Source: Eledone cirrhosa
Taxonomy: Eukaryota
Assembly (NCBI GenBank): GCA_964016885.1
Contig: OZ024745.1
Span: 56,792,001 to 56,856,000, forward strand
Direction of reading: 5' to 3'
Length of the DNA: 64,000 nt
The position numbers and the translations under genes were made by a program. How positions within the stretch are numbered: position 1 is the first letter of the stretch; each line of letters begins with the position of its first letter. The notes beneath the pieces were generated by a model. That model was not told the DNA's origin, ran no database searches, and worked only from the letters and a program-made list of their open reading frames with translations. Below are positions 16,369 to 53,748 of this stretch, piece after piece.

Positions 16369-16431
<63 letters not shown>

Positions 16432-16598
16432 CACATAGAAATAATAATAAATGTGAAGACTAAAATCTAAAGAGGGCTCGATAAGGATAAATATATATCA
16501 AATATATCAGCACCCTAGACCAAATATTTATTAAAATAACAGATTAAAGTTTAACGGGATATGAAAGCAGCGATTTTTGCTTAAATTTTAATCTGTTA

Positions 16599-16629
<31 letters not shown>

Positions 16630-16712
16630 GTGTAAGATGTGAGTTTTATTGTAGTGCAATAAAGCAATGCAAATATCGTATAAGTAGCACTCTACAGTTT
16701 GTAGGACTGGAG

Positions 16713-16948
16713 TATATATAATATAAGATCAAAAGATGGTTAAAAGAGTTCCAAGTATTTTATTAGGCGCAATTCAAAAACAAATATCATCATGAGATGA
16801 TATCTGCGTTTTCATCAGATAAAATAGGGATACATGATATGAAGGTTAAAAAGCACTTGTGAATAGTGAAGTTTAAATTGTTTTTGAAATGCGCATAATA
16901 AAATACTTGCAACTATTTTAACCATCTTTTGATCTTATATTATATATA
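16713..16948. repeat. Foldback with ~70-bp arms containing outward-facing HHR-like motifs
   Basis: Arms 16713..16783 and 16878..16948. The minus strand has ttat-CTGATGA (16818..16812); the right arm has GAAA-TGCGCA-TA-ataa (from 16886). Confidence 0.75.
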
Positions 16949-17012
16949 TATATGTATGTAATCTTTCGTATTATATATATATATATATATATATAAATAA
17001 AATATATATATA

Positions 17013-17280
17013 TAATACAAAGACGAAAGGTTACACCTTCATTAAGTTCAATGGTTGGTGACGCGCGTTTCGCTACAAGGTTCGATCTGTATCGTTCTAG
17101 CCCGACTCTGGAATCAAAAGCTCGTCGGACCTCTGTCATCACTACAACAGAGGTCCGATGGGCTTTTAATTATAGAGTCCGGCTAGATCGACGGAGATCG
17201 AACCTTGAGCTGATCAATAGCGAAACGCGTGTCACCAACCAATAAACGTAATAAAGGAATAACCATTCCTCCTAGTATTA
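17013..17280. repeat. Foldback with ~125-bp arms, each an HHR-like module with a long helix II
   Basis: Arms 17013..17136 and 17147..17280; consensus ggt-CCGAYGR-gct..agc-GAAAC-GCGY-GTC-acc followed by aataaa. Confidence 0.8.
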
Positions 17281-17378
17281 TTATATTACTCTGTCTAGCT
17301 CTACACCTCGATACTGACATGAACCTAATCATCGAGGTTTCACCCGGGTGAACCTACAGTAACTCCGTGTTACACTCC

Positions 17379-17414
<36 letters not shown>

Positions 17415-17416
<2 letters not shown>

Positions 17417-17665
17417 CTTGCACCTGTTTGTAAACTTTATTGCATATTACAATTTGTTTCCATATCGATGAGTATGGGTTTTAACATTCGATAGAATTAC
17501 GACTCTTAATCGACACTTCTACAGACATGAAATTTTACATGGGTGATGCCAAAACTCTCATATCTGAAGAAGTATTGATTAAGAGTTGGGACCGCATCGC
17601 ATGATCAAACCTGAGCTGATCGACATGGAAACAAATTGTAATAAAGTTTACAAAAAGCTGCAATT
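17415..17665. repeat. Diverged foldback of a related long-helix-II HHR module
   Basis: Arms 17415..17530 and 17558..17665; right arm reads tat-CTGAAGA-..atcgacatg-GAAAC-aaatt-GTA-ata. Confidence 0.7.
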
Positions 17666-17799
17666 CTTATTATCACTTTATATAGACTCTGCTAACTAGA
17701 ACCACTTTAAACTTGGAACACAACATAACGATAGACGGATACAGTAACAACAACGTATGTCTCGACATGCGTCGTTGCTAGTGACTACAAATTAAGCAG

Positions 17800-17890: not shown

Positions 17891-20797
17891 AAAAACAAAA
17901 CAAAGGAATTACCACAAGAAATCTACTTGGCAAGAGAACATCAATCGCCAAATAAACCTTCTCCGATCTGACATATAAATTTTAACAAACTATTAAGTAG
18001 GTGAACATGTTAAACAAACTAAACTTAGAAAATTGAAAAAAAAATACAGTATAAAATCAACAAGTGACATAGACATGCTGATAGAAATAATCAAACAAAA
18101 AGTGTCGGCCAAAGCTGCTCGTATAAGGCGCTTTGAAAAACGATCTAGATTCTATAAGGACAATAATATGTTCAAAAACAACCAAAGAAACTTCTACAGA
18201 AAAATTGGTGAGTCAACAATAACTGCTAAATCAATACCACCCAAGGAGGAAGTGCAAGAATTCTGGGAAAAGATCTGGGCTGAAGAAAAAGTTCATAACA
18301 TACATGCCCCATGGATAAACAGACAAATGAAAGATACAGCTCACCTTGAGGAACAAATATGGGAAAATATAACAGTTGAACAGTTGCGCTTGGCTCTAAG
18401 AAAAACCAGCAAATGGAAATCCCCAGGAAAAGACAAAATACAAACTTTTGGATAAATGCCTTCACAGAGTCTCATGAGCTGTTAGCCCAACTTTACAATG
18501 AAATAGTTAAGGAGCCAGAAAAGATACCATCATGGCTAGTTAACGGCATTACATTCCTGCTTCCGAAGAATGATGAGACAAACAATCCCAAAAATTACAG
18601 ACCGATAACTTGCTTGACCACAATGTATAACATTTTAACATCAGTCCTAACTGAATACACATATGACCACCTGATAACAAATGACCTATTTCCCATTGAG
18701 CAGAAAGGGTGTAAACGAGGCTCATATGGCTGTAAGGATCAGCTTCTGGTTAACAAAATGATACTGGAAGATTGTCATAATAGACACAAAAATCTATCGA
18801 TTGCTTGGATAGATTATAAAAAAGCATTCGATAGTTTGCCACACAGTTGGATTGAAAAATGTTTAGAGATTTTCAAAATATCCCCCGTTGTCAGGAGGTT
18901 TTTGTCATTCAGTATGAAGACATGGAAAACGACACTCCTTTTGAATAGGGAAACAAAATCACTGGAAGCTGGAGAAGTTAATATTAATTGTGGAATTTTT
19001 CAGGGTGACTCTTTATCACCGCTTTTATTCTGCATCGCACTTATACCATTAAGTAAAATGTTCAATGAAACAAAACATGGATATAAAGTATATGACAAAA
19101 CCATTAATCACTTGTTCTACATGGATGACCTGAAACTATTTGCAAAAAATGATGAACAATTTCAAGGGCTATTATCCACTGTGGAGCAGTTCAGTGATGA
19201 CATTAAAATGGAGTTTGGACTAGACAAATGCGCCAAAGCAACGTTCACCAGAGGAAAGCTGCTGAAGATTTCAGACATTAATCTTGATCGGGGGAACGTT
19301 ATAAGAGAACTTGATCAAGAAAAAACTTACAAATATCTAGGTGTTTGTGAAGGAGACGGAATCAAGCACTCGACAATGAGGGAAAGGATAAGGAAGGATT
19401 GTTACCGCAGAGTAAGAGCAATCTTAAGAACGGAATTGAATGCAAGGAATAGGATCGATGCCATAAACACGCTTGTCATACCAGTAGTAACCTACAGTTA
19501 CAATGTCATCAACTGGTGAAGCACAGAGATCCGTAGGCTCGATACAAAAATTCGAAAACTCTTAACCATGCAAAGAATGCATCACCCTAAGGCAGATATA
19601 GATATAATATATCTCCCTAGGAAAGAAGGAGGACGTGGGTTAATCCAGTTAGACATTGCGTTGAAAACTGCAACAATTGGATTATCACATGATTGGATGA
19701 TCAAACTCGTTTTGAAACACGAAAGCATCAAAATATCATATTCCATTACAAAAGATGCACAAAGATACAGTAATGGACTACAAATTTCAGAAGTCCCATT
19801 TACTGCTGAAATGGAAAACACAGAAAAAGCAAAGCAGGTAAAAGTAACTGCAAAGAAAGAACTGCTACAGAAACTGTCTAAGAAATGGCAAGAAAAGCCT
19901 CTGTATGGAAAATACCCACAGCGAGCTAACAATCCTGATGTTTACAAAACTTTAACCCATCAGTGGTTGGCATCCTCTGGACTGAAATCGGAGACTGAAG
20001 GACTGATTATATCAGCACAAGATCAGTGTCTGCCAACAAAAAATTACCAAGCCAACATAATAAAAAATGGATGCAGCCCATTATGCCGTCTATGCAAAAA
20101 ACAACCAGAGACCATTGACCATATAATTTCAATGTGCAGTCCTATAGCTCCAGCTGAATACCTAAACAGGCATGACAGAGCTGCACAATGCATACATTGG
20201 ATAATGTGTAAGCATTTTGACCTGCCCCATCAAAAGAATTGGTGGGAGCATCAACCACCTCCCATACTTGAAAAAGATCACATCTCAATCTTGTGGAACT
20301 TTAGCATCCAAACAGACCGAAAAATAGATGCAAATAGACCTGATATAATATTGAAGGACTTCAAAAAGAGAGTATGCCTGCTAATTGATATGTCTGTTCC
20401 AATAGACAAGAATGTATCTATAAAAACATTTGAAAAATTGAGCAAGTATAACGACCTGGAGATAGAAATTGGAAAAATGTGGAAATTGAGAACTAAAACA
20501 ATACCAGTGGTTGTAGGCGCTCTGGGAATGATACCTAAGGGGTCTAATGATTACTTATCGCAAATCCCAGGAAACCCGCGTATAGGAGAAATACAAAAGA
20601 TAGTACTAATGGGAACTGCCCATATACTAAGGAAGATGCTGTCAATATAAGTACATCACAAGTCTAAACACTAAAGATGCATGTGTGAGTATGTATGTTC
20701 TTTCTTGAACATGGCGGACCTTGTTGTCTCTTGAGGTCACTGGTTGTGACTTGGTGATAACTCGTATGAACATAAAGCAAGATAAATGCAACTGTAA
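17891..20797 (+). mobile_element. R4/Dong-clade non-LTR retrotransposon (RT + CCHC + RLE), family A, 5'-truncated and disabled
   Basis: WKSPGKD, NYRPITCL, EQKGC..G.KDQLL, WIDYKKAFDS, GIFQGDSLSPLLF, HLFYMDD, CRLC..ETIDHI..C, RHD, NRPDII..LIDMSVP. Frameshift at ~18440 and TGA at 19517; flanked by (TAA)n on both sides. Confidence 0.92.
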
Positions 20798-21202: not shown

Positions 21203-21948
21203 CAAATAGATCGAATACAGAACAGACATATATCAACTGGAAAAAAGAAACATACCCAAAACAGAAGCTATATTGACAGTAACACACTAGCCAATATACG
21301 AAGAAATATTGGTAAAAAAAAGTTACTAACTGATATAGAAATTGATCAGATCAAGCTATTAGCACAAAGTCAGCGAAGGGAAAATAAAACATACCAGTGT
21401 TGGGGCGGAATCACTGACTACAGAACAAATTAAAGAAAGAATCGAAAAAGTGGAGAGAGTGCATGCTCAAGATGAAACTGAGATGAAAACAATGAGATCG
21501 TAAATGATAAAGAAATGAATGAGAATGAACTTGCCAACTTAGACCTGATATAATACTGAAGGACTTTAAAAAGAGGGTATGCCTGCTAATTGATATGTCC
21601 GTTCCAATAGACAAGAATGTATCTATAAAAACATTTGAAAAATTGAGCAAGTGTAAGGACCTGGAGATAGAAATAGGAAACATGTGGAAATTGAGGACTA
21701 AAACAATACCAGTGGTTGTAGGCGCTCTAGGAATGATACCTGAAGAGTCTAATGATTACTTATCGCAAATCCCAGGAAACCCGCGTGTAGGAGAAATACA
21801 AAATATAGTACTAATGGGAAGTGCCCATATACTAAGGAAGATTCTGTCAATATAAGTACATCACAAGTCTAAACACCTAAAGATACATGTGTGTGTGTGT
21901 ATGTTCTTTCTTGAACATGGTGGACCTTGCTGTCTCTTGAGGTCACTG
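21203..21948 (+). mobile_element. Internally deleted R4/Dong family A copy (N-terminal fragment joined to the RLE 3' end at ~21540)
   Basis: SNTLANIRRNI.KKKLLTDIEIDQIK resembles the R4 N-terminal region; 21541..21948 is nearly identical to 20336..20740. Confidence 0.75.
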
Positions 21949-24039: not shown

Positions 24040-27000
24040 AGGGCCCTTTCTGCCCGTGTGTTTGTTTGTTTATGTGTGTTCGTATACAGCGTGGTGATAA
24101 TGCCACACAAGGGCCAAGTGGGATGGCGGATCCACAGATGGCTATGTAAACATACATTCGCAAATCCTCGATAAGAGTGTTTAAATATCGAACATAAACA
24201 GTTCGAATAACGGTGAAATGGAGACTAGAACGTCATGTGACAGACTCTCACCCAACAGGTGCCCTCTGGCTCAGCAGCAGGAACCTGACTGTCAACCAAA
24301 TACTGCTGATGTTGGAGGAAGAAGAAGAAGGAAAGGGGCCAGAACCAACTGGACGAAAGAATTGAATAGAACTGTTATGCAATGCTACCTGAAAAGTAAC
24401 CCCAAGGAGAGGGGCTACAGGAGGCGGATGCATAACATCTGGAACGAGATTGGTTTATTTAAATTAGATGAACAAAAATTGGCCGGGCAGGCTCGGGTAA
24501 TAAGAACTAATGGGTGGATAAGCGAGCTGGAACTGGAGGAACTGAGCAGAGAGAATGGCTTGGAGATGGCGGGTGTAGTATGCCAGACAAGCGAGCCGGC
24601 GGGAAATGAAGGTGAGGAGGTCCTGAGAACGTAGGAACCACCCGAAGCAGACAATGATCTGAATACTGAGATAAATAATACCTGGAACAGAGATACGGCC
24701 ACTGAGGAGATGAATGCTGACGGGCTAGGACAAGATTCGGTTGACATCCTAAATTTAGTGGTAGATGAGTTGAACAATGATAGTGGGAGACCTATGAACC
24801 TAAGATTTGTAGACAGGAAAAAGTTAAAAGAAACAACAGCTAAGGTAAACAAAGTCATCCCATACCTTGAGGCGAGGAGTCTTCACCAGTGCAACAATAT
24901 CCTCAAAGCAACAGCAAATACGGTGAGGAAACTACTTGGTATAAAAGCGAGAGGAAACAACAGACAAGAAAGAGCAGAGCCGTGGTGGAAGAAGCGACTG
25001 AGTGGGCAAATCGGGGAAATGAGAAATGACATAGGAAAGCTTGAGTCACTACTGAATGGGACACTAAAAAACATAGGCACTAAAAATAGACTGGAAATAA
25101 AATACAAAACTAGGAGTAAAAAGCTAAATATTATCATAGAGGAATTGAAGCAACGCATTGTAGCAAAGAGTGCCAAAATCAGGCGATACGAGAACAGAGT
25201 CAGTCAGTATAAACAGAACCGCATGTTCGACAACAACCAGAAGATGCTGTTTGGACAGCTTGAGGGGAAAGAAAGAGGCAACGACTTGATCCCTGGGGCG
25301 GAACAAGCTAAAACATTCTGGAGAGGAATATGGGAGCAGGATGTTAGACACAATGCCCAGGCAGGGTGGATTGAGACAGTACAGAGGGAGATCGGTGAGC
25401 AGGCACAACAACAGACTGATTTGAGTATCACAGTTGAAACTCTTAAGGGGCAAGCCAAAAAACTAACCAACTGGAAATCACCAGGCCCAGATGGTGTGCA
25501 GGGGTATTGGATTAAACATTTAACATCCCTCCAGCCGAAGCTGACGGCCATGTTCAATGACTGCTTGGTGTCGGGTGAGGTGCCAGAGTGGTTGACAAAA
25601 GGTACCACAGTTCTGATAATGAAAGACCGAATCAAGGGTAATGATGTTACCAACTATAGACCTATCACATGTCTGCCCGTAATGTGGAAACTGTTGACGA
25701 GCATTGTGTCTGAGGAAATCTACCATCACCTCCACACAAACAACTTGTTACCGGACGAACAGAAAGGATGCCGAAAGAAGTCACGTGGTACAAAGGACCA
25801 GTTGCTTATTGATAAGATGGTAATGGGGAATTGCAGGAGGAGACACACTGATCTTGCCATGGGATGGATAGACTACAGAAGGGCATTTGACATGGTGCCT
25901 CATTCCTGGATCACCAAAAGCCTGGAGATCTTCAGGGTGGCAGATAACATCAGACAGTTGCTGGGCAGGAGTATGGGGTCCTGGGAGACAGAGTTGACAT
26001 CAACTGGAGTATCCTTGGGAGGCGTGAAGATCAAGAGAGGTATCTTCCAGGGAGATAGCCTGTCCCCTCTGTTGTTTGTCCTTGCCCTGATGCCCTTGAC
26101 CATTATGCTGCGAAAAGTGAGAGCAGGATACAAGTTGGGAAGGGGAGAGCTTACCATCAATCACCTCCTCTTCATGGACGATCTTAAGCTCTTCGGGAAA
26201 AGTGAGAAGGAGTTGGATGTGCTTGTTGACACTGTCCGTATTTTCAGCAGTGATATACGTATGCAGTTTGGTATTGCTAAATGTGGAGTCATTGTGATGA
26301 AGAGGGGTAGGTTGAGCAGAAGTAACGGGATCCAGATACCAACAGGTGAGATGATAAAGGAAATTGACTCTGAGGAAGGATACAAGTATTTGGGCGTTCT
26401 GGAGGCTGATGGCATAAAGAACAAAAAAATGAAGGAATTGTTAAGAACTGAATACATTCGGAGAGTAAGGAGCGTATTGAAGTCACATCTGAACAGCAGA
26501 AATGCCATAAGCGCAGTAAATTCCCGAGCTGTGTCTATTATTAGGTACAGTGCGGGAATTCTGAGATGGAATGTTGCTGAACAAAAAGAAATGGATAGGA
26601 AGACTAGGAAGCTATTGACTATCTACAACATGTTCCACAAGAGGAGTGATGTCGATAGACTCTACCTAAGGAGATCTGAGGGTGGAAGAGGTCTTATCAG
26701 CATAGAGGACTGTGTTCAGATGGAGAAAAACAACCTATACAAATACGTGACCTATAGTAAGGAGCCAATGCTCAGAGCTGTACTGAAGGAGGGGACAGTA
26801 GGCCAGGGGATATCCAAGGAGGAAATAACATCAAGGAGGAAGAGCAGCCTTAAGGGAAAATCCCTTCATAGTACCTTCTTTGAGAAAACTGAATTTAGAG
26901 ATCCACAGACATGGAACTGGTTGAGAAGAGGAGACCTCAAAAAGGCTACAGAAGGAATGCTAATGGCTGCGCAGGAGCAGGCCCTCAAAACGAAGTGGTT

Positions 27001-27690
27001 GAAGCACCATATCTACAAGGAGGAGGCTAGCCCACTGTGCAGGATCTGTGGAGAGAGAGAGGAGACTGTGGCTCACATTGTGTCCGAGTGTAAACACCTA
27101 GCCCAGACCCACTATAAGGGCTGGAGACACGATGTGATGGGCAGGGTAATCCACTGGCACCTGTGCAAAGTAAACAATCTACCACATTCTGAGAAATGGT
27201 ATGAGCATAGGCCAGAGGCGGTGATGGAGAACAGTCAGGTGAAGGTGCTGTGGGATTTTAGGATACAGACGGACAAAAAACTGGAACACAATAGGCCTGA
27301 CCTGGTGGTTGTGGACAAAGAAAAAAGATCGTGCCTGATTGTGGATGTGGCCTGCCCGTTCGACACGAGAGTGCAAGAGAAGGAGAGGGAGAAAATTAAC
27401 CGATACCAGGACCTAAAGTGGGAGGTGAAAAGGATTTGGAACTGCCATGAAGTCAAAGTGATCCCGATTGTCATAGGCGCACTGGGGACTATCTCCAAAG
27501 GTTTCCAGGGATGGTTAAAGAAAATCGGCCCCTTCACGCTTTTTGGAACGCTTCAAAAGGCATGCTTGCTTGGAACAGCAAGAACCCTCCGATACGTCCT
27601 GAATATCTGAGGCTGCAGGTAGTGGCTTGATATTCAATCCAACGGACTTTCCAGTTAACCAACATCAATGACTGAGATTCAAGGAATAAC
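24040..27690 (+). mobile_element. Near full-length R4/Dong-clade retrotransposon, family B
   Basis: Putative 5' UTR, long ORF and short 3' UTR ending in (TAA/CAA)n at ~27686. The 5' boundary is approximate. Confidence 0.92.
24218..27610 (+). CDS. RT-CCHC-restriction-like endonuclease polyprotein, 1130 codons, interrupted by a single in-frame TAG at 24632..24634
   Basis: ORFs 24218..24634 and 24710..27610 are in the same frame with no other stop between them. Motifs WTKELNRTVMQCY..EQKLAGQARVI, WKSPGPDG, QGDSLSP, FMDD, CRIC..ETVAHIVSEC, RHD, NRPDLVV..IVDVACP, KINRYQDL. Confidence 0.85.
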
Positions 27691-27696
27691 AATAAC

Positions 27697-27724
<28 letters not shown>

Positions 27725-27727
<3 letters not shown>

Positions 27728-28197
27728 TAGATGCAAATAGACCTGATATAATATTGAAGGACTTTCAAAGGAGGGTATGCCTGCTAATTGATATGTCTGT
27801 TCCAATAGACAAGAATGTATCTATAAAAACATTTGAAAAATTGAGCAAGTATAAGAACCTGGAGATAGAGATTGGAAAAATGTGGAAATTGAGAACTAAA
27901 ACAATACCAGTGGTTGTAGGCGCTCTGGGAATGATACCTAAGGGGTCTAACGACTACTTATCGCAAATCCCAGGAAACCCGCGTATAGGAGAAATACAAA
28001 AGATAGTACTAATGGTAACTGCCCATATACTAAGGAAGATCCTGTCAATATAAGTACATCACAAGTCTAAACACTAAGGATGCATGTGTGAATATGTGTG
28101 TTCTTTCTTGAACATGGCGGACCTTGTTGTCTCTTGAGGTCACTGGTTGTGACTTGGTGATAACTCGTATGAACATAAAGCAAGATAAATGCAACTG
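27725..28197 (+). mobile_element. R4/Dong family A 3' fragment
   Basis: Nearly identical to 20322..20797; flanked by (TAA)n. Confidence 0.9.
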
Positions 28198-38979: not shown

Positions 38980-39235
38980 TAATCCGGGTTGAATCGGAGG
39001 TAGCCACAGTAAGTGAGGTACTGAATACATTGCAGAGTATAAACGTTTTAATATAGGATAGCTTCTACAGGACTAGAACTGTTTCATTCGTGAGAAATCA
39101 TCAGGAAGCTGGCTGTCCAAATAAATGGTAGTATTTATGTCCTTCCTTATCTGATGGTAGGAGAGGGTGGGATTTGGGATGGGTGTAGGTCATTGGTTGA
39201 AGTATTTAAAGAAAGGGGATTCATTCAGAAGTGCG
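38980..39235 (-). mobile_element. PLE pLTR copy ending in (TA)n
   Basis: Reverse-complement homologue of ~2830..3082. Confidence 0.8.
39060..39110 (-). ncRNA. Intact type I hammerhead ribozyme
   Basis: Minus strand reads AGCTTC-CTGATGA-tttc tcac gaat-GAAA-CAG ttctagtc CTG-TA-GAAGCT: perfect 6-bp helix I, full core and a GUA site. Confidence 0.85.
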
Positions 39236-46339: not shown

Positions 46340-47710
46340 TAAAAGAAAACTTTTTTTGCTCAACAAGGCTGAATACAATATATGTAATCTGAGTTTTTCG
46401 AATATTAATAATAACATTCGATTCGATTGCAATTATGCAAACAAGCCTCAATTTTATAGCCATGGCATTTTGGTTAGGGTTTAGATTTTTATTATTAATT
46501 CTATTTATATTTTGTGCTATATTCATAGTAGTAGGATAGTTTTATAGTATGTCTGTTAAAGATTGAGTGGTATCTGTGGACTTTAGGAAAACATTTATCT
46601 AGTGCTTTAAAGAATAGCTTGCTAAAGGTGTTTTAACGCTTAATGAGAATGGGGGTGAGTACCAACTAATTGTTTCTACTTTTTGGCACAATGCCACCAA
46701 ATACCCAGTGCATTACTGGTACTTTATTTTATCGACCCCGTAAGGATGAAAGGCAAAGTTAACCTCGGCGGGATTTGAGTACCAAATAATATTTCTAGTT
46801 CTATTTCCTCTGTTAGATTTAGAGTTTAAGTTAGATTTTTTATTATAATTATAATTAATAGTAGGGTTATTTGCCTTATTACTGTTGTCGATGTATTTAA
46901 TCTTATTTATATAGCCTGCTCTTTTTAAAACCTCATTATAATATTCTGCCTTATCGTCAAAAATGTTTTTATTAGCGGAGATGCGTGAAATACGTTGTTG
47001 GATAGAATTGACAATAGTGTTCTTGATAGATCTAGAATGATTAGAGTTAAAACTTACATAGTTTAGATTCTCATTAATTTTATGGAATGGATAGTAGAGC
47101 CCTGTGCTACGGTTTAATGTTACGTCTAAAAAGTTAACAATTTTATAGTTATTCTCTATTTCTAACTTAAGGTTGTAGCTATTGAAGAATTGTATTATGG
47201 ATTTTCTTTTTCTATTAATTTCAGAATTACTACGATTTTCAATTAAAAGCAGCATATCATCACGATATAAACCTCCGGTCATCTCTGGTATTTTTCTATG
47301 CAGTGTATTATTAATAAATTGCCCCCACAAGATCCGTTATTTGCGTCGATTCTGATGATCCCGTGGTGATATCAAAATTATTTTTTATCGGCTCTAGTCC
47401 AGAGATGATTGTTGAATTCAATAAAAGTTTTCCGTGCGGTTAAAATGATATGCATTTCAGATCAATGTGTATGTTTAGATGCATACATTAGAGCTTTATT
47501 AAGTAAATTAGGAATCCTGGAGGAGTAGTAGTTTTCAATATCCAATTGAATGAATTTTTTGTTATGTTTAAATGTTATGGTATTGAACCAATCTATAACT
47601 TTGTTATTACCGTTCCATAGGTAAGATATTTCTTTAAGTTGCGGTATATGTTTACTAACTATGCCTAAGTCTGCTTTAGATGGGGCTATAAGTCTGACTG
47701 GTAGTTCTAT
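46340..47710 (-). mobile_element. Degenerate Penelope-like RT, same lineage as 1..1523
   Basis: FIQLDIENYYSS, MTGGLYRDDML, NFLDVTLN, YYPFHKINENLNYVSFNSNH, RNIIWY; interrupted by a SINE. Confidence 0.85.
46671..46778 (-). mobile_element. 5'-truncated SINE inserted in the PLE with a ~15-bp TSD
   Basis: tgagtaccaaCtaat (46656..46670) and tgagtaccaaAtaat (46776..46790). Confidence 0.85.
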
Positions 47711-53102: not shown

Positions 53103-53748
53103 CCACGTGTCCTAGAAAATTCCAATTTTGAATCCAATTTAGATATAAACTTTATTTTCATGCAATAGTATACGATCGACATGACCAAATCTACATATCT
53201 ATATCTCTCTCCCTCTCAACATCGTCCATCGTACACAATGCATTGATTTATGTCAAATGATTATATTAAGATATGTAATATATTTATTTTTGTGTACTGA
53301 AGATAAGGCATACACTATTATTTTGTATATAGAAATACTTATTAATTTTATAGCTTTACTTATTTTATCCCTTTGTATTTGAATATAACTCTACTCTCAA
53401 TATGTCCACAAAATCAACACCAAACCCCCACCACCACAATTACAGCAACCTTTACTTTCTATAGGCTATTTGTCCATGAATTGTTGTGTCTGTTAGCTTT
53501 AAATGAATGAGAATTCGTTGAACACTGCTGGCTTTTTATTGTTGAATAGTCAAGTAATACTGAAGAATACACGCTATTAGAGCAACGTCGAACAATTGCT
53601 AACGGATGCTCAGTAAGCTTGAAATAATAAGGTCTATTCGCAAGAGACTTGAAAACACTTTATTAAACGTCTTTTGCATAACATATACATGCATGTATAC
53701 TGGATCATATTTTCAATTGCTCTTATGTTGTATTCGTAATCCGCTCCC

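Follow-up and report, generated by a model that had tools for sequence, protein, structure and literature searches.

Long-armed hammerhead motifs at the ends of putative Hydra-type Penelope-like retrotransposons in Eledone cirrhosa, and core variants suggesting that self-cleavage may be dispensable

Hammerhead ribozymes in the ends of Penelope-like retrotransposons (PLEs) and the Hydra clade of these elements are already known. According to the portions of the published accounts used here, PLE traits include truncation, an inverted copy alongside and (TA)n as the target, and the function of PLE hammerheads is stated to be open (PMC8557442). The minimal hammerheads described from PLEs are weak and act as dimers (PMC4209133). 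In the PLE of Anolis, the hammerhead cleaves only with protein added, catalytic mutants leave insertion in vitro unaffected, and reverse transcription begins on uncleaved RNA, at two internal sites (PMC11167929). As for the ribozyme core, in the sections concerned with natural variants, U4C is reported to lower activity considerably and changes at A6 to result in low activity, and in a viroid U4C remains sufficient in vivo (PMC3088659).

Here we analysed a window, by which we mean the whole stretch of 64,000 nucleotides, taken from a 3.0-Gb host assembly; this 64-kb window is AT-rich and dense in microsatellites. Three fold-back blocks lie in it between (TA)n runs (16713-16948, 17007-17381 and 17418-17794), and two of them hold the modules called A and B (Table 1). 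Judged from sequence comparison, each module is the 3' end of a Hydra-type Penelope-like family, the two families being related, and the window holds two 5'-truncated fold-back insertions, with the (TA)n at A's end as the landing site of B. Element A's direct arm is 86% identical over 246 nt to one genomic copy (L075), and that of element B is 81% identical over 250 nt to another (L040). When the window was scanned with a covariance model of 23 genomic representatives, exactly these four arms were found (E < 1e-6), which shows family membership and not independent structure, because the model was built from relatives of the window arms. Damage is seen in all four arms: the plus arm of A carries U4C and A9G, the minus arm of A has U4C and a deletion, and the minus arm of B has A6U and a decayed insert, with the plus arm of B being the only one that retains an intact core. 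Single-sequence folding of the four arms gave no hammerhead, and the z values against shuffles were 0.00, -0.09, +1.63 and -1.25. Since both A arms derive from one insertion, they do not provide independent evidence for U4C, which comes instead from the genome-wide counts. The window copies are decayed, ordinary transposon fossils, and the value of the case lies in the genome-wide allelic series.

Table 1 Features of the two window elements and location of the young subfamily found elsewhere in the genome
Feature	Position	Strand	Remarks
Element A, inverted 5' arm	17007..17136	-	38.2 bits; hammerhead with U4C and 10-nt helix II deletion
Element A, direct arm	17134..17381	+	5'-truncated pseudo-LTR: hammerhead and ~150-nt tail, to (TA)n
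Hammerhead A	17152..17236	+	74.9 bits
Hammerhead A, helix I	17152-17154/17234-17236	+	
Hammerhead A, core	17155-17161	+	U4C, A9G
Hammerhead A, helix II base	17162-17171/17212-17221	+	10 bp
Hammerhead A, helix II extension	17172..17211	+	40 nt; bulge, conserved motif, irregular stem, apical hairpin
Hammerhead A, GAAA box	17222-17225	+	helix III palindromic
Hammerhead A, cleavage triplet	17231-17233	+	GUC
(TA)17 microsatellite separating elements A and B	17382..17415		insertion target
Element B, inverted 5' arm	17418..17551	-	40.1 bits; core A6U, insert decayed
Element B, direct arm	17552..17794	+	5'-truncated 3' end, putative second Hydra-type family
Hammerhead B	17561..17643	+	46.4 bits
Hammerhead B, core	17564-17570	+	canonical
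Hammerhead B, helix II base	17571-17580/17618-17627	+	
Hammerhead B, helix II extension	17581..17617	+	37 nt
Hammerhead B, GAAA box	17628-17631	+	
Hammerhead B, cleavage triplet	17638-17640	+	GUA
Inverted-arm cores, A then B	17128-17122; 17524-17518	-	
Young, putatively autonomous Hydra-type subfamily	G000:C3:151602500-151605100 (L391), L392-L409		intact 858-aa ORF

A preliminary description of this DNA had given the layout of core, helix II, insert and GAAA box for two modules, and this layout is indeed present on the plus strand in both, as are the differences in helix I and helix III that it had described between them. The helix II pairs that it quoted, on the other hand, combine 5' strands of the minus arms with 3' strands of the plus arms, and no single copy has them. 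It did not recognize that the motifs are the pseudo-LTR ends of Penelope-like retrotransposons, with decayed copies in the window. A search of Rfam gave no match at the gathering score, and with E up to 10 it returned hairpin-type chance matches and no hammerhead family; the Rfam hammerhead models miss the motif because the extension exceeds the models. Two other candidate readings of the locus were rejected. A heterodimer of A and B within the window was ruled out from the letters, since the helix III palindromes of the two modules differ, and a non-LTR retrozyme does not fit a locus with no tandem array, with inverted arms and with families that have coding parents.

Several further repeats were observed in the window. 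The block at 16713-16948 is a third fold-back PLE-like end with matches in at least 14 loci, and its minus arm shows a canonical core, then a different hairpin of ~40 nt and then a GAA box. The ends of two more repeat families lie between (TA)n runs at 16415-16712, with matches in at least 65 and at least 11 loci, the first having a short hammerhead-like motif and an upstream part with 3,030 candidates genome-wide. At 39054-39114 on the minus strand, a repeat found in at least 44 loci contains a short canonical hammerhead whose helix II region is 12 nt long. At 53557-53640, a core and a GAAA box stand 54 nt apart with a 3-bp helix I; there was no match among the genomic loci compared, and this occurrence is probably due to chance. 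Fragments of Hydra-type RT/GIY-YIG sequences were seen at 87-1523 and 46713-47336. For the family of the former, 77,098 candidate places were counted and many 758-aa open frames were seen, with very long (TA/TG)n UTRs behind them, and this family was linked to the long-armed motif in 0 of 30 loci within the flanks examined. Finally, ORFs of non-LTR retrotransposons (RVT_1) adjoin (TAA)n arrays at 17997-20650, 21529-21855, 24635-27610 and 27676-28053; one 991-aa frame among them is uninterrupted, and their C-terminal restriction-like endonuclease pattern is what we take to be R4/Dong-like.

The assignment of the modules to Hydra-type PLEs is based on their genomic relatives. Scoring 40 candidates per module gave 45 genome matches for module A (of 1,191 candidates) and likewise 45 for module B (of 551), and a 20-base pattern of the shared 3' half had 4,602 exact matches, compared with 0 for the reversed control; with dispersed-repeat matches of this kind, the modules are not the product of chance. 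In family B, a GIY-YIG fragment, the 3' UTR and the motif are collinear in 5 of 12 loci, with the motif ~0.7-1 kb downstream, and the coding remains are limited to fragments of the endonuclease and the thumb. In family A, several independent loci have a member of one and the same endonuclease family upstream of the A UTR. A search with the A-lineage endonuclease gave 25 loci, of which 7 have an A/C-type motif at 0.8-1.1 kb downstream, and in two of these 7 it is of the window's A type. When 20 regions were selected by their RT, the motif was located downstream of the ORF in 12, and 5 of those had it upstream as well, 4.4-5.0 kb away, so that a motif in both pseudo-LTRs is established for the A/C lineage only.

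An 858-aa ORF at locus L391 contains, as read from its translation, DKT, CxCX5C, GIY-YIG, CxxC and CxH, with no CCHH, and CxCX5C was also present in family B loci. The Pfam search gave GIY-YIG with E 0.0027, which is below the curated cut-off, and no Pfam RT match. At the RWK position, RWR was found in L395, L403 and L408, and LWR in L391. By these ORF motifs, the elements appear to match the definition of the Hydra clade, with RWR for RWK and with a longer unit. The length from motif to motif is 4.4-5.0 kb in the subfamily with a double core variant, and this unit exceeds 3 kb because of its long microsatellite-rich 3' UTR. The genomic surroundings were also recorded: (TA)n adjoins the window elements and most copies, an inverted partner was present within 400 bp in 8 of 30 pattern-selected loci (some pairs being counted twice), and the copy ends past the cleavage site cluster at 40-79 nt (35/84) and at 150-169 nt (35/84). 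An upstream block common to L080 and L090 was considered as part of these elements and rejected, being a different PLE family in antisense. At L391:4883-8350, the 3' UTR of the intact element is interrupted by another kind of PLE, which has a 1,155-aa open frame.

The helix II extension is 37-41 nt long and recurs in about ten family types. A pattern combining its internal motif with the canonical core was found in 1,776 copies from many family types and in 0 for the control. The halves of the motif are 0.86-0.88 identical between family groups, compared with 0.49-0.57 for the flanks and 53% for the shuffled control (35 single-copy pairs). This conservation is partly circular for families H-L, since the motif served to retrieve them; families A, B and D are free of this circularity. 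In an alignment of 23 representatives, the GAAA box is invariant (23/23), and the triplet is GUC or GUA in 22, the remaining row being misaligned by a deletion. The named structure pairs 82% of the cells, compared with 75% after shuffling and 30-35% with slid partners; as the 23 rows are related, the shuffle comparison is not to be read as a P value. Changes on both sides were found in 20 of 34 pairs, namely 4/6 in helix I, 7/10 in helix II, 2/4 in helix III and 7/14 in the extension. The best pair of the extension, columns 36-62, is paired in all 23 rows (AU 9, GU 7, GC 6 and UA 1), while the most conserved extension pairs hardly vary and therefore provide no covariation, and pairs 39-41 are unpaired in about half of the rows. 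Helix III, which is too short for a monomer, occurs as three palindromes across the family groups with 96.7% of cells paired, and the basal pair of helix II (G10.1-C11.1) is unpaired in 9 of the 23 rows and is A-G in family B.

The covariation of the extension across families can be regarded as moderate. The preliminary description had proposed covarying stems and a conserved insert; changes on both sides do occur in helices I-III and in the extension, to a moderate degree in 23 rows, but RNAalifold on the same rows did not recover the proposed fold and preferred a weak alternative (-4.24 kcal/mol). Single-sequence folds were no better than shuffles in 9 of 10 cases. The extension is likely kept for a role other than cleavage, for example as a structural or protein-binding handle. 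A K-turn reading of the bulge and tandem GA was rejected because of a loop of 4-5 nt and poor flanking pairs, as judged by eye against the K-turn consensus. Scanning metagenome data (4 of 64 parts) and viral contigs for the insert pattern yielded 171 loci, 0 of which had the core and the GAAA box. Contigs from sequencing runs of two other organisms cover parts of the motif and two more organisms gave none, which is too thin for a claim on distribution. Other hammerhead-like families with a core-to-GAAA distance of 44-102 nt and unrelated inserts were also seen (L065, L077, L049, L136, L187, L188, L040 and L087), and PLE ends with a long helix II arm seem to be frequent in this genome. In families J and K (L418-L423), the insert on the sense strand resembles a tRNA T-arm with an internal duplication; this likeness could hint at the origin of the insert, with no exact B box being present there.

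The core of the ribozyme differs among these families. In the A/C lineage, exact patterns were counted 326 times for the canonical core, 422 times for U4C and 929 times for A6U, in counts that favour young copies, and nearly all A6U copies among the matches listed also carry U4C. Subfamily A1 has 250 copies with U4C and 47 with a canonical core genome-wide, so U4C was already in the source element, and the canonical minority is probably a product of CpG deamination. It had been left undecided in the preliminary description whether U4C was a natural core variant or shared decay, and these counts decide for a natural, family-level variant. Its expectation of a conserved CUGANGA and GAAA holds for GAAA (23/23) and for the CUGANGA of family B, but not for the CUGANGA of family A or of the subfamily with both U4C and A6U. 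Family B is canonical, with U4 in 25 of 27 copies and A6 in 27 of 27. The more telling variant, U4C together with A6U in the youngest subfamily, sits elsewhere in the genome, and the preliminary description missed it.

A tree was made from 101 copies without the core positions, with a bootstrap that had not fully settled and a long-branch warning. Its outgroup families have canonical cores, and the clade of double variants falls inside the canonical group C1 at a support of 100/98, with the shortest tips and a ladder of short branches. Within this tree, U4C had either a single origin followed by reversion or two origins. The double-variant clade has matches of 97-98% on many contigs, and the exact double-variant core is present in 20 of 25 loci of the young clade. 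Its divergence was lower than that of the others, both in the insert (0.065 versus 0.083-0.086) and in the tail (0.05 versus 0.13-0.15; n = 25, 12 and 18). A6U was found in all 12 downstream motifs of the RT-selected regions, and the subfamily of L391 and L392-L409 has the U4C + A6U core in both pseudo-LTRs and a 2.2-kb microsatellite-rich 3' UTR. Over 15 ORF copies, pN/pS was 0.21 for variants in at least 3 copies compared with 0.65 for singletons (Fisher P 2e-10); an A6U core is readable in 14 of the 15, that of L391 being truncated. The lower ratio among shared variants implies selection for a working protein in source elements that had the variant core. On these data, the double-variant subfamily is the youngest one, with an intact ORF and under purifying selection.

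We favour, as a reasonably probable account, that the modules are decayed fold-back ends of Hydra-type elements, that the extension is likely a structural or protein handle and that self-cleavage is likely dispensable. As the youngest protein-coding subfamily has a doubly mutated core, these elements have likely spread without cutting their own RNA. The protein of the element would nick (TA)n DNA and prime reverse transcription downstream of the uncleaved hammerhead, and early termination and template switching would yield short copies bearing an inverted arm. In families with a canonical core, cleavage would be possible solely in dimers formed via the palindromic helix III, and from double-variant cores little or no cleavage would be expected. 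The canonical core is retained in most families, which points to selection on cleavage in much of the lineage, and the sufficiency of U4C in the viroid in vivo together with the protein-dependent cleavage in Anolis indicates that weak cores can work with help. The extension may bind the element's own RT-endonuclease. In a bolder form, which we offer only tentatively, the extension would be an RNA domain recognised by the Penelope RT-endonuclease, and the hammerhead of the youngest lineage a non-cleaving, protein-binding scaffold. If this were true, the canonical, U4C and U4C + A6U cores would document in nature, through dated intermediates, how a ribozyme lost its catalysis and kept its fold, and the question of what PLE hammerheads are for would be answered.

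The retention of G5, G8, A9, the GAAA box, the helix III palindrome and the cleavage triplet in the variant subfamilies could also mean that variant cores still cleave, with U4C and U4C + A6U being rescued by tertiary contacts of the extension to helix I or by protein recruitment. The conserved motif starts 10 bp up helix II, near the site of loop 2 in short PLE hammerheads, and in the material cited here natural U4C is viable in a viroid (PMC3088659) and activity of a PLE hammerhead needs protein (PMC11167929). However, families with a canonical core bear the same extension, which therefore did not arise as compensation, two core changes are stacked in the youngest clade, and in so young a clade the other positions may be retained only because little time has passed; we regard rescue as unlikely. 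Another way to keep cleavage is in trans, with a canonical relative lending its catalytic half to a variant RNA via a common palindromic helix III. C1 (canonical) and C2 (double variant) do have helix III and the cleavage triplet in common and a compatible helix I, and PLE hammerheads are described as acting in dimers in the relevant part of PMC4209133. The C1 copies, however, are older and more decayed, helices I and III differ in the other canonical families, and the copies end well past the cleavage site, which leaves trans cleavage a slim chance.

The dispensability of cleavage is also to be weighed against other roles of the extension. Its conserved motif might act as DNA, as part of the internal polymerase II promoter of the pseudo-LTR or of a recognition site of the endonuclease, with the hairpin being secondary. 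The motif lies ~230-260 nt upstream of the start codon in tandem elements, its sequence is conserved with little covariation, and promoters have been described in PLE pseudo-LTRs in the text consulted (PMC6765202); but the conserved halves are complementary, and columns 36-62 vary on both sides yet pair in 23 of 23 rows, a sign of pairing in RNA that makes a DNA motif rather unlikely. We see similarly little prospect for an attenuator, in which the conserved 5' motif of the extension would pair with a core strand during transcription and hold the ribozyme off. RNAalifold predicts such a helix, and in A1 it reaches -16.4 kcal/mol, a z of -4.5 and a pair probability of 1.00 in the nascent RNA, with U4C strengthening the helix, but the mean z over the 23 rows is -0.75, B, D and the double-variant rows lack the helix, and the same purine is accounted for by the stem of the extension itself. 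The preliminary description had read the insert as a possible pol III promoter with an antisense B box. Its hammerhead variant with a conserved, structured insert is supported, the extension covarying across families, but the pol III promoter or T-loop domain is not. The antisense 9-mer resembling a B box has one mismatch in module A and recurs in 6 A/C rows, but it is missing from module B's family and, at the corresponding place, from B and D; an exact B box (by the general box consensus) was found in 0 of 23 rows on either strand, and no A box lies upstream in the 6 A/C rows. As a tRNA scan also gave no tRNA gene, a tRNA-like pol III promoter is hardly credible. Compared with all of these, an extension that serves as a structural or protein handle in elements able to spread without self-cleavage is the reading that we retain.

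Compared with the described systems, the present families have both familiar and distinct features. As in the Hydra clade, in the parts of PMC8557442 compared here, the hammerhead is of type I near the 3' end with a palindromic helix III, a frequent mismatch at the base of helix II and (TA)n, and the RT has DKT, a CxCX5C linker and, at its C terminus, GIY-YIG. In contrast, loop 2 is 3-10 nt in all listed rows of that clade, where a structured extension of 37-41 nt is present here, U4C and A6U are absent from its listed rows and present here, and its units are generally < 3 kb compared with 4.4-5.0 kb here. When three short motifs of these families were compared with the consensus sequences of the PMC8557442 supplement, there was no match. 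The minimal PLE hammerheads, as covered in the excerpts of PMC4209133, also occur in both pseudo-LTRs with a long helix II, a short helix I and a palindromic helix III, in many solo copies and in opposite-strand pairs. A dimer requirement is described for them, and we infer the same for the canonical cores; their helix II, however, is 7-8 bp with a small loop, and their core variant is U3-A8 and not U4C or A6U. Long spacers are also found in Selaginella PLE-X, with a 29-34-nt loop 2, and in the Naiad 'HHR_half_core', with 35-50 nt between half cores, but these belong to other clades and no conserved internal motif or covariation is reported for them in the relevant passages (PMC8557442).

In the Poseidon PLE of Anolis, there are two downstream starts of reverse transcription, and the copies here end at two distances; dispensability was seen there with engineered mutants in vitro, whereas natural core mutants have been amplified in a genome here, and the description of that hammerhead, in the part used, contains no extension of the kind present here (PMC11167929). 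Among natural core variants, the sections of PMC3088659 considered include the viroid U4C and a tested A6C with low activity, but no U4C + A6U double variant and none in retrotransposons. In the literature sampled and the PMC8557442 supplement, with Repbase outside the comparison, we found neither the helix II extension nor an active PLE with a double core variant described. The hammerhead class described here, missed by Rfam and by short-loop descriptors, has > 3,000 exact-pattern copies in this genome. It offers a natural allelic series in one lineage, with canonical, U4C and U4C + A6U cores on the same scaffold. The U4C + A6U core sits in elements that went on amplifying with their protein under purifying selection, and the series makes directly testable whether cleavage is needed and which other tasks the RNA has.
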